Positions 57,670 through 64,000 of a stretch of 64,000 nt of DNA are shown one piece after another; the first letter of the stretch is position 1, and every line of letters begins with the position of its first letter. The stretch is from positions 20,179 through 84,178 of the forward strand of contig SVAN01000001.1 in NCBI GenBank assembly GCA_015059375.1, given 5' to 3'. The position numbers were made by a program, and so were the translations under genes. This DNA comes from Bacillota bacterium. GTDB taxonomy: Bacteria; Bacillota_I; Bacilli_A; RF39; UBA660. The notes below the pieces were generated by a model. The model was given only the letters and a program-made list of their open reading frames with translations. It was not told the DNA's origin and did not search any database.

Positions 57670-59640
57670 ATGAAAAAAATAAGTTTGTTATTAGTTTATG
57701 TATTAAGTTTTATATACATGGAATTTTTGTATCGTATTTTAGTAATGGATAGCGTTTTTCGACTTACCAATATTAATATGATTGCATTTATTTTGTTTTT
57801 TGCACTATTAATGTACATATTTTCTAAAGTATTTAGAGAAAAAGGAAATAAAATCGTTTTTTATACATTGATGGCAATAATTGGCTTATGGTTTTCTGCT
57901 CAGTTTGTTGTTAAATCATTTTTTGATTTTTATATTTCTTTTTCGATTTTACAAATTGCTGATCAGGTTGGAGATTTCTTAGATAAAGCCGTAGTGGAAA
58001 CCTTAAAAAGACTTTGGGGAATTGCTCTTATGTATTTACCTCTTATTATGGCCGTAATCTTTCGCAAAAAAATTAATTTTAAGCAACACAAACCAGCGAA
58101 AACTATTTTACTTTTAGGTATTTCTTGTTTGGCCTTTGGTCTTTACTATGCAAGCTTATATCTAAATAAAAATGCTGACTATTCTCCGTACGAACTATAT
58201 CATCATATAAATAATCCGTCTCTTAATATGGAAAAAGTTGGGGTTTTAAATACTTTTTGTCTTGATACATATCGTTTAATATTTGGTTTCGAAGAAAAAT
58301 TAATTCTTAATCAGGAAGTAGTTCCAAAAGAGCCGCTTCCTGAAGAAATAGTATATGAAGCTAATAAATTAGATATAGATTTAGAAAAATTAAAAAATGA
58401 AACTAAAGATCAAACGATTAAAACAATGACTGAATACTTTGAAAATGATTTAGGTACTTTGCAAAATCAATATACAGGTATGTTTAAAGGAAAAAATTTA
58501 ATACTAATAATGGCAGAAAGTTTTAATGAAATTGCTGTCAGGGAAGATACGACGCCAACAATCTATAAAATGGCTAATGAAAGTTTTGTTTTCGATAATT
58601 TTTATTCGCCGACAATTTATAGTACAATTGGGGGAGAATTTCAATATTTAACGGGACTGTATGCTAATTTTACATCACTTTCTCAATTTAGAGGTGGAAA
58701 AAATTCATTCCCAATGGGAATAGCTCATCTTTTCGAAAGTGAAGGCTATAAAACTTTTGCTTATCATAATAACTCTTATGCTTTTCAAAATCGGGATACA
58801 TATTTAAAAGGATTAGGTTTTGATAATTTTAAAGGTTGTTATAACGGCATGGAAAAATTAATTAACTGTAAGCAATGGCCTCAGAGTGATGTAGAGATGA
58901 TTGAGACAACCTATCTAGATTATATCAATTCTGAAGATCCATTTATGGTCTTTTATGCATCGGTATCTGGTCATGCAGGATATTCTTGGGGCGGAAATGC
59001 AATGTCAAGAAAACATCGCGCTGAAATCGAGGCATTAAATCTTCCATATAGTGAAGGTGTACTTGCTTATTTAGCGGCCCAAATGGAATTTGATAGGGCA
59101 CTTGAACTTTTAGTTAATAAACTAAAGGAAGCAGGTAAGCTTGAGGATACTGTTATAGCTTTTGTCGGAGATCACTATCCATATGAACTTACTGCAGCTC
59201 AGGTTAATGAAGCTGCAAGTTATGAAAAAGATGCAACGGTCGAAATTAACCGGAGTAAATTTGTATTATGGAACCCTAATGTTGAAACAACACATATTGC
59301 GAAAGTCGGTAGTCAAATTGATGTTTTACCAACAATTTATAACATTTTTGGGCTTAAATATGATTCACGATTAATTATTGGTAAAGATATATTATCAAAT
59401 GAAATGGGCCTTGCAATGTTTGGTGATAATTCTTGGGTATCTGATAAGGGAACTTATTTTGCTTCTTCGGGAAAATTTGTTCCAAAAGTAGAAGTTAATG
59501 AAGATTATGTTAAAACAATGAATCAAATTGTTCGAAATAAAATTACGATGAGTAAGTATATAATGGATAAAAATTATTATAAGATTGCGTGGGATTATAG
59601 AATATGGGAGCAATTGCCGGAGGAAAATCAAATCAATTAA
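57670..59640 (+). CDS. LTA-synthase (LtaS)-family polyglycerolphosphate transferase / sulfatase-superfamily membrane enzyme
   Basis: Five N-terminal TM, then an extracellular alkaline-phosphatase-like domain (…NLILIMAESFNE…, …FDNFYSPTIYSTIGGEF…, …GDHYPYEL…). Confidence 0.7.
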   Translation: MKKISLLLVYVLSFIYMEFLYRILVMDSVFRLTNINMIAFILFFALLMYIFSKVFREKGNKIVFYTLMAIIGLWFSAQFVVKSFFDFYISFSILQIADQVGDFLDKAVVETLKRLWGIALMYLPLIMAVIFRKKINFKQHKPAKTILLLGISCLAFGLYYASLYLNKNADYSPYELYHHINNPSLNMEKVGVLNTFCLDTYRLIFGFEEKLILNQEVVPKEPLPEEIVYEANKLDIDLEKLKNETKDQTIKTMTEYFENDLGTLQNQYTGMFKGKNLILIMAESFNEIAVREDTTPTIYKMANESFVFDNFYSPTIYSTIGGEFQYLTGLYANFTSLSQFRGGKNSFPMGIAHLFESEGYKTFAYHNNSYAFQNRDTYLKGLGFDNFKGCYNGMEKLINCKQWPQSDVEMIETTYLDYINSEDPFMVFYASVSGHAGYSWGGNAMSRKHRAEIEALNLPYSEGVLAYLAAQMEFDRALELLVNKLKEAGKLEDTVIAFVGDHYPYELTAAQVNEAASYEKDATVEINRSKFVLWNPNVETTHIAKVGSQIDVLPTIYNIFGLKYDSRLIIGKDILSNEMGLAMFGDNSWVSDKGTYFASSGKFVPKVEVNEDYVKTMNQIVRNKITMSKYIMDKNYYKIAWDYRIWEQLPEENQIN

Positions 59641-61277
59641 ATGTTCAAAAAATAGCAGCAATAATGAGCTATTATGGAAGTAATATTAATGAGTTTTCTG
59701 ACGATAACTTTCATCTTGGACAAATTAGTGATAAGGATAATTTTTATGAAGATGATAAATATGTAATTATATCGACAGGAGATTTATTACCTAAAGATTT
59801 TCTTGAAAGATATAAAAAAGAAAAAGAGGATTCTTTTATTAGTTTAAAAGGATCTTTTTCAATTGCAATATATGAAAAAGTAACTAAAAAAATAATTTTA
59901 GTTACCGATAAATTTGGCACTAATAGTCTTTTTTATACCAAAGATAATTTTTGTTTTGCAACGGAAATTAAGGGAATTTTAGCAAATGGATATCCAAAAG
60001 AACTCAATCTAAATATTTTAAAAGATTATTTTTTATATTTGACTAATCCTCATGAAGAAACTATTTTCAAAGGTATTTATCGTGTTCCGGCAGGGTGTTA
60101 TGTCGTTATCAAGGAAGATATTGAGGTATTTAGATATTACACTTTTACCTTTAAAGACTTAATTTATGATGAAAATGAAGTATTTGAAAAGTTAAATCAA
60201 AGTATTTTAGATAGTTTTCAAATGCAGAAAAATACAGCTTCGTTTTTATCAAGTGGGATTGATTCTTCATTAATTACTACACTATGTAAAGTCAAGGATA
60301 CTTATACAGTTGCATATCATGAAAAAGAATATAGTGAAAGCTATTTTACATCTGTTTTGTGTAATTATTTAAAAATAGAAAATAATATAGTTACTTTAAG
60401 TAAAAGAGAGTTTTTAAAAGCTATTCCTATTATCCAAAAAGCTTTAGATGAACCTTGTTTAGATCCAGCGGTTGTTTCTCTTTATTTTGGGGCTAAAGAA
60501 GCAAGCAAAAAATATAAAAAGGTTTTTTCTGGTGAAGGCGCTGATGAACTTTTTGGGGGATATAATACTTATCTTGATACGGTTAAATATCCAAAATATA
60601 ATCATGTTCCTTTTCGGAAAGTGATTACCAAAATGCTATTATTGTTTCCGGAAGTAAAAGGAATTAATTTTTTACTACGAAGGATTTGTAATGTTGAAGA
60701 TTATTATACCGGAGTATCAAGAATTTTTAATGAACATACTTTAAATAAACTTTTGAAGGTGAAAGGAAAAAGTCATATTTCTCAAATTAATGAAGTTATT
60801 GCTGGTGAAGAAGATATTTTACACCAAAAGCAAATTGTTGATTTAAAATTTTGGCTACATGCTGAAATTTCTGCGACTAAAAGAATGGGTGCTATTAACC
60901 ATCTAGAAGTTATAATGCCATTTTTAAGTGAGGAAGTAGTAGAGATTGCTTCTGCGATTCCATCTTCCTTTAAAATTAATGGGAATACAACTAAAGCAAT
61001 TTTAAGGAAGATAGTAGAAATGTATCTTCCGGAAGATTATTATCAAAATAAAAAACTGGGTTTTCCAGTTCCTTTTCGCAAATGGATATGTACAAAAGAG
61101 TATTATAATGAATTCCTTAAAGTTTTTAGTAGTAATGATGCTAAAAAATTCTTTAATCAGAAAAGACTTTTAAAAATGTTAAATTATACCTATGAACAAA
61201 AGAAGGATTATTCAAAAGTGTTATACAGCATTTATGCTTTTTTAATTTGGTATCAAGAAGTCTTTAAACTCACTTGA
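59604..61277 (+). CDS. asparagine-synthetase-B-like amidotransferase with degenerate N-terminal glutaminase domain (catalytic Cys2 replaced: MGAIAG…)
   Basis: C-terminal PP-loop SSGIDSS and AsnB-like N-terminal domain topology (…LKGSFSIAIYEK…LVTDKFGTNSLFY…), but the MCGI nucleophile is absent. Confidence 0.6.
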   Translation: MGAIAGGKSNQLNVQKIAAIMSYYGSNINEFSDDNFHLGQISDKDNFYEDDKYVIISTGDLLPKDFLERYKKEKEDSFISLKGSFSIAIYEKVTKKIILVTDKFGTNSLFYTKDNFCFATEIKGILANGYPKELNLNILKDYFLYLTNPHEETIFKGIYRVPAGCYVVIKEDIEVFRYYTFTFKDLIYDENEVFEKLNQSILDSFQMQKNTASFLSSGIDSSLITTLCKVKDTYTVAYHEKEYSESYFTSVLCNYLKIENNIVTLSKREFLKAIPIIQKALDEPCLDPAVVSLYFGAKEASKKYKKVFSGEGADELFGGYNTYLDTVKYPKYNHVPFRKVITKMLLLFPEVKGINFLLRRICNVEDYYTGVSRIFNEHTLNKLLKVKGKSHISQINEVIAGEEDILHQKQIVDLKFWLHAEISATKRMGAINHLEVIMPFLSEEVVEIASAIPSSFKINGNTTKAILRKIVEMYLPEDYYQNKKLGFPVPFRKWICTKEYYNEFLKVFSSNDAKKFFNQKRLLKMLNYTYEQKKDYSKVLYSIYAFLIWYQEVFKLT

Positions 61278-61340
61278 ACTTTTATATGTTTTAAGATAAA
61301 ATGAATATATAGTAGATAAAAATAATAGTGGTGAGGTTAT

Positions 61341-64000
61341 ATGGATAAAGCAAAAAACAGGAAAACATATTATATATTGTCAATTGCTATACTTTTAATT
61401 GCGGTAATTGGCTTTTCTTTTGCGTATTTTTTAGGAACGTTTACTAATACGGCGGGAATAGATGTTAGTTTAAGATTTGATGATTATATTTTTGAAACAT
61501 CACATGATGTTGATGAAGTAGAATTAAATATAGATGCTCTTTCGATGTTTGGCCAAGAAGAAGATGTTTTAGTGGGAAGCGCCGATCAAAAGATAAATTT
61601 TTCTTTAACAAATCTTGACGGCCAAGCAAGAGTATGTACTTATGATTTATTATGGGTTTGGGATTCAGCATTTGATCAATACAATATTTCTCAATCAGGG
61701 ATTAAAGAATTTACCATAACAGCAGGAGGACCAGAAACCCAGCTTCCTAATTATTCATCAAATGAAACTGTGATTTCATCAGGAACAATAGCGGCTGTTA
61801 GTGAAGGCTATGAATCTGTTAAAACCGAAAATATAACTTTAAAATTTTATAATTTAGCAAATGTTGACCAAGCAATTCATGCCGGTAAAAACTATAAAGG
61901 AACAGTTAAGGTAGGAAATGTATTGTGTGAAACTGTCGAAGGAATGGAAAAACTTTCGGATACTGTTCTTGCTTTGGAAAGTAATGATGATTATACGTCA
62001 AAAGATGATGGTACAATATACCGAGTAGCAAATCAAAATGGTGTAAGATACGAAGGCGCAAACCCAGATAATTATGTTGAGTATAATGGTGAACTATGGC
62101 GTATAATTGGTACATTTAATGGCTCAGATATGAATCTTGATCCCAATAAAGAGTATACAAAGATAATAAAAGCAACTCCAATAGGGAAATATTACTGGGA
62201 TACTGGTGGCAAAAACGATTGGGAAAATGCAAGCTTAAATACATATTTAAATGGCGAATATTTTGCATCTCTTTCTGAAAAAGCACAATCGATGGTAGCA
62301 AAATATAATGGCGAGTATTCATTATGGCATTTAAGAGGAACTAATCATAGTACATATCAAACTTTATATGCATCAGGTTGGTATGATATAGAGAGAACTA
62401 CCGGTATTGCTGGTTATAAGGATGGTGTATATAATAAAGCCTCTCCTGAAAAAACAGCAGCGATAGGTCTTATGTACCCGAGCGATTATGGATATGCAGC
62501 CTATGGAAGTACATGTAACAATGAAAGTACAGAAACATTAAATTCTTATTCCGGAGTTTGTTCAGCAGTAGACTGGCTAATGTATCTAGATAGTACAGGA
62601 GTATATAAAAACGAATGGATGATAACTCCGTATTCGGCAAGTGCATATGAAGCATATTATCTTGGAGTACAATATGCTAATGGAAGCCTTGTTTATTATA
62701 GAGTTAATGATGCTAGTTTGGCAGTGCGTCCAACATTATATTTAGATGCTGAAGTTTACCAATATGATGGTGATGGTTCAGAGGATGATCCATATAAACT
62801 TGTTAGAGTAACCGAAATAAAGACGCTTTCTGATACAGTGTTAGCACTTGAAAGAAACGAAGATTATACCTCAAATCAAGATGGCTCTATTTACCGAGTA
62901 GTAGACCAAAATGGTGTGAGATATGAAGGTAAAAACCCTGATAATTATGTGTATTATAATTGCACAGATGAATCGGATACTTCCACATGTGAATTATGGC
63001 GAATTATTGGTACATTTAATGGTTCAGATATGAACCTTGATCCAAATAAAAAATATACCAAAATAGTAAGAAGTACACAACTAGAAACAAATATGGCATG
63101 GAATAGTACATCACCATATGAAAATGACTGGGTGAGATCAACACTAAATGCGTACTTAAATGGAGAGTACTTAGGCAAGCTATCAACAACTGCTCAAGGG
63201 CAAATTGCAAAATATAATAATAAATATTCGCTATGGCATTTAAGGGGAGCAGATTTCGATAGCGACACGCCTGAAACCCTATATGCAGCAGGATGGTATG
63301 ATATCGAAAGAAATACAGGTACTTCGGGATATCGAAATGGTATCGAAGGAGCCGCAGATGCCGCAAAAGAATATGCAATAGGACTAATGTATCCAAGTGA
63401 TTATGGATATGCAGCATATGGAAGTTCGTGTAATAATGAAAATACAGAATCGTTATATGAGTATAAAGTATGTGCAGCAGTGGATTGGTTAGTCGACTCG
63501 GGCTACTCGGGATGGGTAATATCTCCGGGTCCCGGTTACGACTCTGCTTTCTATGTGGCTGGCGGCGATGGTGGGTATGTCTATATCGAAAACGTCCGCT
63601 ACGAGCAGTCGGTTCGTCCTACGTTATATTTGGAAGCAGATGTTTTAGTAAAAGATGGAAATGGCTCCGAAGATAGCCCATACGAACTTTATTATGAAGC
63701 TCCGCCAATGACTTTATCAGATACAGTTCTTGCTTTAGAAAGTGAAAATGATTATACCTCAAGTCAAGATGGTTCTATTTATCGAGTAGTAAATCAAAAT
63801 GGGGTAAGGTACGAGGGTAAAAAACCTGATAATTATGTGTATTATAATTGCACAGATGAATCGGATACTTCTACATGTGAATTATGGCGAATTATTGGTA
63901 CATTTAATGGTTCGGATATGAACCTTAATCCAAGTAAGAAATATACCAAAATAGTAAGAAGTACACCGCTAGAAACAGAAATGGTATGGGATGCCGATGG
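61341..64000 (+). CDS. large signal-anchored tandem-repeat surface protein (≥886 aa; 3' end beyond window). Three ~290-aa Tyr/Cys-containing repeats
   Basis: GGTGAGG RBS then ATG. Translation stays open to the window edge, so it is missing from the stop-delimited ORF track. N-terminal TM (ILSIAILLIAVIGFSFAYFLG). Repeat units begin at ~61948, ~62817 and ~63712 with LSDTVLALE..DYTS..DG.IYRV..QNGVRYEG.NPDNYV.YN…ELWRIIGTFNGSDMNL.P.K.YTKI…. Confidence 0.6.
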   Translation, partial: MDKAKNRKTYYILSIAILLIAVIGFSFAYFLGTFTNTAGIDVSLRFDDYIFETSHDVDEVELNIDALSMFGQEEDVLVGSADQKINFSLTNLDGQARVCTYDLLWVWDSAFDQYNISQSGIKEFTITAGGPETQLPNYSSNETVISSGTIAAVSEGYESVKTENITLKFYNLANVDQAIHAGKNYKGTVKVGNVLCETVEGMEKLSDTVLALESNDDYTSKDDGTIYRVANQNGVRYEGANPDNYVEYNGELWRIIGTFNGSDMNLDPNKEYTKIIKATPIGKYYWDTGGKNDWENASLNTYLNGEYFASLSEKAQSMVAKYNGEYSLWHLRGTNHSTYQTLYASGWYDIERTTGIAGYKDGVYNKASPEKTAAIGLMYPSDYGYAAYGSTCNNESTETLNSYSGVCSAVDWLMYLDSTGVYKNEWMITPYSASAYEAYYLGVQYANGSLVYYRVNDASLAVRPTLYLDAEVYQYDGDGSEDDPYKLVRVTEIKTLSDTVLALERNEDYTSNQDGSIYRVVDQNGVRYEGKNPDNYVYYNCTDESDTSTCELWRIIGTFNGSDMNLDPNKKYTKIVRSTQLETNMAWNSTSPYENDWVRSTLNAYLNGEYLGKLSTTAQGQIAKYNNKYSLWHLRGADFDSDTPETLYAAGWYDIERNTGTSGYRNGIEGAADAAKEYAIGLMYPSDYGYAAYGSSCNNENTESLYEYKVCAAVDWLVDSGYSGWVISPGPGYDSAFYVAGGDGGYVYIENVRYEQSVRPTLYLEADVLVKDGNGSEDSPYELYYEAPPMTLSDTVLALESENDYTSSQDGSIYRVVNQNGVRYEGKKPDNYVYYNCTDESDTSTCELWRIIGTFNGSDMNLNPSKKYTKIVRSTPLETEMVWDAD

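Follow-up and report, generated by a model that had tools for sequence, protein, structure and literature searches.

A three-module DUF6273 protein of a gut Bacillota genome: a probable exported, lectin-like binding protein with a hypervariable predicted hairpin

What is encoded by a long reading frame which runs off the edge of the available DNA, and what might its product do? The question arises at the end of a 64,000-nt stretch of contig SVAN01000001.1 from a Bacillota bacterium (GCA_015059375.1; hereafter the window, at its full length), where a frame built of large tandem repeats opens at position 61341 and is still open at the last nucleotide. Based on the results below, it is an intact gene with three modules of the Pfam family DUF6273, and we consider it probable (roughly 0.6) that the product is an exported, multivalent ligand-binding protein of the adhesin or lectin-like type, in which a variable hairpin region contacts the ligand. 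Binding is proposed because the same fold is used in phage receptor-binding proteins, because of the domains which accompany the module in related proteins, and because of the pattern of its variation. The gene is composed as follows:

61341 to 64000, plus strand: coding sequence cut by the window edge, 886 open codons, stop codon supplied by contig L001; DUF6273 at 53.4 bits in three stretches
61330 to 61336, plus strand: GGTGAGG, resembling a Shine-Dalgarno site and separated from the ATG by 4 nt; direct reading of the sequence
61341 to 61439, plus strand: N-terminal signal or anchor segment (aa 1-33) with MDKAKNRK, a hydrophobic helix and the motif S-F-A↓Y-F at aa 26-30 (arrow, putative cut), from model, hydropathy and family motif
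61458 to 61940, plus strand: family-specific N-terminal beta-sandwich (aa ~40-200, ~160 aa) with conserved Cys99 and Cys196, all-beta in the model, predicted local distance difference test score (pLDDT) of the block 81-92
61950 to 62822, plus strand: module 1 (aa 204-494, 291 aa), DUF6273-type, 20.9 bits alone against a cutoff of 23.5, lacking a CTDESDTST insert
62823 to 63710, plus strand: module 2 (aa 495-790, 296 aa), DUF6273-type, 30.2 bits, with a confident model and significant structural matches
63711 to 64000, plus strand: module 3 (aa 791-1085, 295 aa), first 96 codons in the window; the full module from L001 scores 26.6 bits

Upstream of the ATG at 61341, the frame is closed by a TGA at 61332, and translation from this ATG proceeds through 886 codons to the window end without a stop. 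Since the frame crosses the window edge, the gene is absent from the list of open reading frames (ORFs); a first-pass annotation made from the sequence alone had seen this and had also correctly placed the start behind GGTGAGG. The missing part was found on L001, a 137,205-bp metagenome contig of the Joint Genome Institute (JGI; 3300031555, Ga0318466_10002442), which was reached via the exact sequence of the upstream asparagine synthase gene (59604-61277) and is 100% identical to the window across all 14,397 shared nt (window position = L001 position + 49603). The stop codon lies 598 nt past the window edge, and the full gene (L001 11738-14995) comprises 3258 nt, i.e., 1085 codons plus stop, ending at the window equivalent of 64598. 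The encoded protein has 1085 aa (120.9 kDa, isoelectric point 4.3) and the C-terminus ...PYILINGSEI; the guanine-cytosine content of the source organism is low (29%). A giant protein with an open-ended number of at least three repeats had been announced. Extending the contig located the 3' end, and the protein is not giant and has exactly three repeats.

Repeats of this kind could be collapsed or chimeric assembly products, or the gene could be a pseudogene; an assembly collapse and a pseudogene had been raised as dangers in the first-pass annotation. Five further metagenome contigs from other samples (L002-L006) share the gene start with 0-1 mismatch. All five are shorter and end inside the gene, at gene positions 123, 1014, 1078, 1991 and 2599; one of them stops within the near-identical tract of module 3 described below. 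Repeat-bearing genes usually break short-read assemblies, and these ends are consistent with repeats or paralog similarity having had this effect here. Breakage within the gene in five of six contigs speaks for an artefact, as do tracts common to paralogs which could mislead short-read assemblers. On the other hand, no frameshift was found and the frame is intact through 1085 codons, overlapping parts match in six assemblies from different samples, the modules differ in 28-40% of their amino acids and are thus easily told apart, and three-module relatives exist independently (P0001, 1084 aa; P0004, 1103 aa). The five contigs argue against a one-off artefact, but they do not amount to five independent views of the full gene. 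We conclude that this is an unbroken gene which recurs across assemblies; an artefact or pseudogene is extremely improbable.

The repeats were delimited by the motif LSDTVLALE at residues 205, 496 and 792 and begin within a few nt of the positions initially proposed (~61948, ~62817, ~63712). A separate repeat search recovered the same units at a spacing of 873-915 nt, and Tandem Repeats Finder reported nothing because its longest period of 500 is below the repeat period of ~888 nt. Amino acid identity amounts to 60% between repeats 1 and 2, 63.5% between 1 and 3, and 72% between 2 and 3, the corresponding values for DNA being 64.5%, 66% and 78%. The first-pass annotation had called the repeats rich in tyrosine and cysteine, with two conserved cysteine pairs in each. 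Tyrosine is indeed enriched (9.7% versus 5.5% in eleven neighbouring genes), while cysteine, at 1.1%, remains at the background level of these genes. The protein has 12 cysteines, which lie in six local pairs (99/196, 392/407, 541/550, 697/711, 837/846, 989/1004). Two pairs each are present in repeats 2 and 3 as described; repeat 1 has a single one, because the nine-residue insert CTDESDTST is missing.

Initially, no known adhesin domain had been recognized in the repeats. They belong to Pfam DUF6273 (PF19789), which matches the full protein above the gathering threshold of 23.5 bits (E-value 3.7e-14), and the models give them an enlarged C-type-lectin-like fold. Taken singly, modules 2 and 3 also exceed the threshold and module 1 falls just under it. 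No NCBIfam model matches the protein or a single repeat, and Pfam Lectin_C matches neither the protein nor its modules. Two AlphaFold2 models were calculated from alignments built from single-module homologs. The first, covering the N-terminus and module 1 (494 aa), reached a pLDDT of 85.9 and predicts a helix at residues 4-30 and an all-beta domain at 43-198, followed by the module; the linker at 27-39 has low confidence. Modelling of one repeat, suggested in the first-pass annotation, was done with module 2 alone and was highly confident (pLDDT 93.9, predicted template-modelling score [pTM] 0.93). When this model was compared with PDB using Foldseek, the sole significant match was 9qa6 (E-value 4.1e-7, probability 1.00, TM-score on the query [TMq] 0.48, 12% identity), a cryo-electron microscopy structure of the Thomasclavelia ramosa IgA peptidase. 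The non-significant tail consists mostly of C-type-lectin-like proteins (mannose receptor, Endo180, LOX-1, NKR-P1, CD72, Lcl 8q4e), all at an E-value of 0.4 or above. Since PDB sequence searches yielded nothing meaningful (noise at an E-value of 0.34 with the protein, no match with a family sequence profile), the link to 9qa6 rests on the fold and the common Pfam family. Among predicted viral structures (BFVD), module 2 found 19 matches with E-values ≤ 1e-3, the best being 3.8e-8, mostly named "DUF6273 domain-containing protein" and from gut phages.

The matched N-terminal domain of the IgA peptidase has been described as having a C-type-lectin-like core at double the normal size (PMC12237041) and has been labelled DUF6273 (PMC12402451). 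This domain of IgAse/ThomasA (A31-A321; PMC12237041, PMC12402451) is like our module in its size of ~290 aa, its family and its decorated C-type-lectin-like core, and in both cases an exported protein of a gut Firmicute carries it, at the N-terminus in IgAse. The two share 12% identity. In IgAse, a single copy with a structural zinc site (D78, H90, C126) is combined with an M64 metallopeptidase and an LPXTG-type anchor, whereas three tandem copies follow a beta-sandwich in the protein studied here, which lacks a peptidase as well as a C-terminal anchor. The DUF6273 domain of phages is similar to a C-type lectin domain, and diversity-generating retroelements use it as a target (PMC10743442). 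These "tentaclins" and Faecalibacterium prophage targets (PMC10743442, PMC11792537) share domain and fold with our modules, and, as here, their C-terminal hairpin is the most variable part. In contrast, the present gene sits in a cellular context and has no reverse transcriptase, template repeat or adenine-biased differences, and its modules are about twice as long as many phage DUF6273 domains, with an extra N-terminal subdomain. The C-terminal domain of Legionella Lcl (DUF1566, 8q4e) has been named as the fold closest to the N-terminal domain of IgAse (PMC12237041), and Lcl binds host glycosaminoglycans according to the title of a work cited there. Module 2 and this domain have a C-type-lectin-like core in common; the match is non-significant (probability 0.54, E-value 0.87, 42 aligned columns), the Lcl domain is far smaller (131 aa), and Pfam DUF1566 has no match in our protein.

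A conserved core invites another reading, namely that the module is an enzyme rather than a binder, with a catalytic site in the enlarged C-type-lectin-like fold around the invariant GLMYPSDYGYA. Such a site would find a parallel in formylglycine-generating enzymes, which we take to have a similar fold. Ten residues (R33, N41, R60, K80, N101, W103, S192, D193, Y194, Y196) are invariant in 306 family modules, and in ten close modules (55-76% identical) pairwise identity is 91-98% at residues 181-200, where GLMYPSDYGYA lies, and 98% at 191-200. Against a catalytic role, no enzyme family in Pfam or NCBIfam matches the protein and no significant match to an enzyme structure was obtained. Furthermore, three tandem copies and relatives among phage receptor-binding proteins are typical of binding modules, and, judging from the Pfam alignment range, the conserved segment would be a core strand of DUF6273. 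We regard an enzyme as unlikely.

If the modules are binding modules, as we prefer, the candidate for ligand contact is a segment near their C-terminus:

63543 to 63602, plus strand: module residues 241-260, where module 2 varies most; predicted to form a beta-hairpin with strands at 241-246 and 252-257, candidate ligand-contact region

Column entropy over the 306 modules peaks here at 3.4 bits, and the ten close modules mentioned above are only 27-37% identical to each other in this segment. Between repeats 2 and 3, the proportion of nonsynonymous differences (pN, 0.32-0.39) in the C-terminal region is about as high as that of synonymous differences (pS, 0.33-0.35), whereas pN is far below pS upstream. 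In the model, the hairpin (241-257) sits between the conserved WxISP and VRP motifs. The Pfam alignment pairs module residues 91-273 with positions 20-171 of the 172-position profile and places the hairpin in the C-terminal part of DUF6273. The variable region of phage retroelements maps to the DUF6273 C-terminus as well (PMC11792537) and forms a beta-hairpin in models of tentaclins (PMC10743442). As modelled, the hypervariable hairpin is thus predicted to lie at the position which phage retroelements vary in DUF6273.

Could the gene itself be a target of a diversity-generating retroelement? This candidate was rejected, as no reverse transcriptase was found (no reverse-transcriptase-like YxDD context in the 64-kb window; no RVT family among the called genes of L001 or of L087, a further piece of the same contig) and the mismatches between the repeats are of all types without adenine bias. 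The same evidence bears on the broader view that the protein is a prophage-derived receptor-binding (tail-fibre) protein or retroelement target instead of a cellular surface protein. Gut phage DUF6273 proteins being the best viral structural matches and the recurrent use of DUF6273 as a retroelement target (PMC10743442, PMC11792537) would fit this view. Its neighbours, however, are housekeeping genes (Tex, LtaS-like sulfatase, asparagine synthase, RmuC, Dus, AddAB-type helicases, Mur ligase), no phage genes were seen among them, and an N-terminal export helix is not a virion feature. Together with the missing reverse-transcriptase motif in the window and mismatches which are not adenine-specific, this makes a phage origin very unlikely.

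How, then, might the variation arise? The DNA of repeats 2 and 3 contains a pair of tracts which are nearly the same:

62937 to 63078, plus strand: near-identical tract, copy in module 2, 142 nt with 5 mismatches to 63825-63966
63825 to 63966, plus strand: near-identical tract, copy in module 3, counterpart of 62937-63078

Within the 142 nt, 89 nt carry a single mismatch. The tract had been noticed in the first-pass annotation and attributed to recent duplication or gene conversion, which is supported by the silent differences of repeats 2 and 3 in Nei-Gojobori counts, pS falling from 0.39 outside the tract to 0.14 within it (Fisher p = 0.01). As the tract is alike at silent sites too, gene conversion or a recent partial duplication is indicated rather than protein-level constraint alone. 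Repeat 1 is much older, its pS against repeats 2 and 3 being 0.66-0.69.

Exchange may extend to other genes. The same contig carries the paralog P0003 (L087 8001-10427; 808 aa, two modules, different N-terminal domain; NCBI hypothetical protein of a "Firmicutes bacterium" metagenome-assembled genome [MAG], E7164_00540), which starts ~13 kb downstream of the stop codon of our gene. Over 738 nt, module 3 and module 1 of P0003 are 81.6% identical and share perfectly matching tracts of 74 and 71 nt, whereas module 3 reaches 76.7% with the adjoining module 2. Repeats 2 and 3 together are collinear with both P0003 modules (75.5% over 1540 nt). In the orthologue-like P0001, the CTDESD insert is found in module 1 and not in modules 2 and 3. 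The tracts shared with P0003 and the shifted insert in P0001 lead us to the view that modules have been exchanged within and between genes; at the DNA level, the modules are mosaics. A second paralog (L087 12797-15625, 942 aa) starts ~18 kb past the stop of our gene and has the same N-domain motifs (FAYAYF, CTYDLVWSW) and a module ending in ...EWTISP...VRPVLYL. With these two on the same contig, the source genome has at least three paralogs within ~25 kb.

Whether the protein leaves the cell must be read from its N-terminus. The product starts with MDKAKNRK, followed by a hydrophobic stretch of 21 residues. The Kyte-Doolittle maximum (19-residue window) is 2.56 at residue 12 and the runner-up is 0.94, so that this is the only strongly hydrophobic segment, and the four basic residues which precede the helix indicate an N-in orientation. 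The N-terminal transmembrane segment of the first-pass annotation is therefore well founded as a hydrophobic helix (modelled at 4-30), and so is its description of an exported protein of large tandem repeats, given this helix, the lack of another hydrophobic segment and the module fold. Export is proposed on account of the charged N-terminus, the single hydrophobic helix and a fold found in surface and phage receptor-binding proteins. No LPXTG-like motif, prepilin motif or second hydrophobic segment was found in the 1085 aa; compared with LPXTG adhesins, the C-terminus lacks both the motif and a hydrophobic segment. The protein may be cleaved after Ala28 and released, or it may be kept by the uncleaved helix; the signal-anchored state named in the first-pass annotation is thus one of two alternatives.

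A cut at this site would suit the -3/-1 rule for signal peptidase I, which the motif S-F-A↓Y-F fits. The motif also closely resembles what we take to be the SipW-type signal of TasA and camelysin, and a different fate of the protein is conceivable: as a secreted matrix or fibre subunit, it would be cut at S-F-A↓Y-F by an archaeal-type peptidase, and the freed N-terminal strand and the beta-sandwich would polymerise via donor-strand exchange, displaying three lectin-like modules along a fibre. A28, Y29 and F30 are nearly invariant in the family alignment, and 119 of 210 family N-termini follow the logo G/T/S at -4, S/T at -3, Y/F at -2, A at -1, Y/F/M at +1 and F at +2. As in TasA and camelysin, an N-terminus of the S/T-Y/F-A↓Y/F-F type is followed by a beta-sandwich after the signal; TasA has no lectin-like modules. 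The absence of a C-terminal anchor in our protein also suits this reading. The signal models remain below threshold throughout: TIGR04088 (SipW-type signal) scores 16.6 and 14.9 bits in two relatives (cutoff 19) and does not match the protein itself, and TIGR04090 gives 11.7 bits in the protein (E-value 0.15, cutoff 60 bits). AlphaFold places the motif within the helix. The beta-sandwich has no Pfam family, and a fold search with the two-domain model returned weak, generic beta-sandwiches for it (Bd1399 8okh, E-value 2.6e-4; CBM61); a TasA-like fold of this domain is unsupported, as neither TasA nor camelysin is among the top 50 PDB matches. Within the retrieved set, the domain is homologous in many family members (phmmer E-values down to 8e-37), and no homolog was retrieved when the N-terminal 203 aa alone were used in a word-based search.

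A peptidase for such a cut would be expected nearby or elsewhere in the genome. No signal peptidase motif was found in the 64-kb window and no archaeal-type peptidase in ~100 kb of the source genome. Two related MAGs have, at a distance of a few kb from family genes, a gene which matches TIGR02228 (archaeal/SipW-type signal peptidase) above the cutoff of 51.85 (L076 14415-15035 and L079 4804-5949; 63 and 80 bits). The product of the latter has 381 aa, roughly double the ordinary size, and its peptidase portion is C-terminal. Two genes in 80 loci are about what chance would give, and this linkage was rejected as evidence. In sum, a fibre subunit processed by SipW is a possible, minority reading, and we continue to prefer an exported binding protein, whichever way it is retained or released.

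The family to which the protein belongs is known, large and functionally uncharacterised. A word-indexed protein search returned more than 2000 relatives, with lengths clustering at ~510, 800 and 1085-1103 aa and a best relative of 53% identity over 1084 aa. An exhaustive search with module 2, clustered at 50% identity, gave 2411 clusters at an E-value ≤ 1e-3, 884 at ≤ 1e-10 and 47 at ≤ 1e-30. The three-module architecture is uncommon: among 250 retrieved proteins, one full module was counted in 153, two in 63, three in seven and six in one. A first scan of species-representative genomes with the protein itself as query revealed no relative, and the source species is apparently missing from this set; more than 577 matching loci were found in such genomes, of which 80 were kept. 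Almost all of these 80 come from gut MAGs of uncultured bacteria with labels such as Bacilli, Tenericutes, Mycoplasma sp. or Firmicutes bacterium CAG:822, including closed chromosomes of ~1.5 Mb, and there are several loci per genome.

Relatives pair the module with Listeria-Bacteroides repeats, HYR, Ig-like, fn3 and laminin-G domains or a prepilin N-terminus. In P0012 (837 aa), an N-terminus of the prepilin type (MKKNKGFTLVEM; Pfam N_methyl, 21.9 bits) precedes the module, which is joined by Ig-like and HYR domains; this arrangement suggests that DUF6273 may be displayed on a type IV pilus-like fibre in some bacteria. Related MAGs also have up to four single-module genes side by side in tandem, which differ from each other in their N-terminal regions (L035 7437-13105; also L063, L071, L047 and L084); such arrays by analogy recall the variable surface-protein gene clusters of Mollicutes. 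Beside P0004 (L089 11365-14361), a tyrosine recombinase gene (Phage_integrase) and a 690-aa protein with Listeria-Bacteroides repeats are found; a recombinase adjoining surface-protein genes could hint at site-specific switching.

From these results, we propose that the protein acts on the cell surface, or released from it, as a multivalent lectin-like ligand binder, whose ligand may be a glycan or a protein and may belong to the host, the diet or another microbe. Each module would bind with one face, at the centre of which the hypervariable hairpin of its C-terminal part would lie. The source of variation would be the duplication of modules and gene conversion, both inside single paralogs and from one paralog to another, rather than a retroelement. 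The "binding or antigen-type" function named in the first-pass annotation is likewise a proposal.

Several points weigh against this proposal. The matches to canonical C-type-lectin-like domains stay at an E-value of 0.4 or above, and the EPN/QPD, WND and WIGL motifs of canonical C-type lectins are absent from the 1085 aa. The IgA protease cleaves IgA without its N-terminal domain, for which no function is known (PMC12237041), and no DUF6273 domain with an experimentally demonstrated ligand is contained in the literature cited here. The conserved R33, N41, R60, K80, N101, S192 and D193 could equally mark an active site. Besides the N-terminal helix, which may be cleaved off, no device for wall or membrane attachment is present. 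Finally, promoter-like sites occur at chance frequency in this AT-rich region, and the one upstream of the gene is a mere candidate:

61274 to 61302, plus strand: promoter-like TTGAAC-17-TAAAAT (L001 11671-11699), 9 of 12 consensus positions, candidate only

A wider picture can be drawn, which we hold doubtful as a whole: a lineage-specific, variable lectin-like surface or matrix system of small-genome gut Bacilli (MAGs labelled Bacilli, Tenericutes, CAG:822), whose proteins combine the conserved N-terminal motif, a private beta-sandwich and 1-3 enlarged DUF6273 modules. The motif would be a SipW-type signal of a new sort, the beta-sandwich would serve attachment or polymerisation, and specificities would be shuffled by gene conversion among paralogs. 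If true, phages and these bacteria would diversify the same fold in parallel, the latter without a retroelement. Current views are not overturned by the gene, which contributes one more member, and an architecture, to a known, unstudied family. DUF6273 occurs frequently in gut Firmicutes and in the phages of these bacteria, no ligand is known for it, and the Bacilli which carry it are uncultured, so that surface proteins are among the few clues to their attachment to hosts, food particles or other microbes. The gene is a clean and complete example, with three diverged modules, a confident model and, in the hairpin, a candidate binding region, and its conserved N-terminal motif bears on whether such proteins are anchored or released.

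Some minor observations concern the surroundings of the gene. Rfam detected no RNA family on either strand of 60500-64000. An antisense ORF of 133 aa (63016-63417, minus strand) lies wholly inside the sense gene, in module 2; it has no support and was dismissed as spurious, probably arising from the frequent Tyr and Asn codons on the sense strand. Downstream, outside the window, an ORF of 142 aa with a TTG start follows 12 nt after the stop codon (L001 15007-15435, window equivalent 64610-65038), for which neither a signal sequence nor a Pfam or NCBIfam family was found. A strong terminator-like hairpin of 10 pairs with a T-run comes after this ORF (L001 15455-15477), and the gene and the ORF may therefore be co-transcribed. 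Upstream, the gene of the LtaS-like sulfatase (57670-59640) runs 37 nt (59604-59640) into that of the asparagine synthase (59604-61277), which is in a different frame; so long an overlap suggests that the true start of the asparagine synthase may be further downstream.

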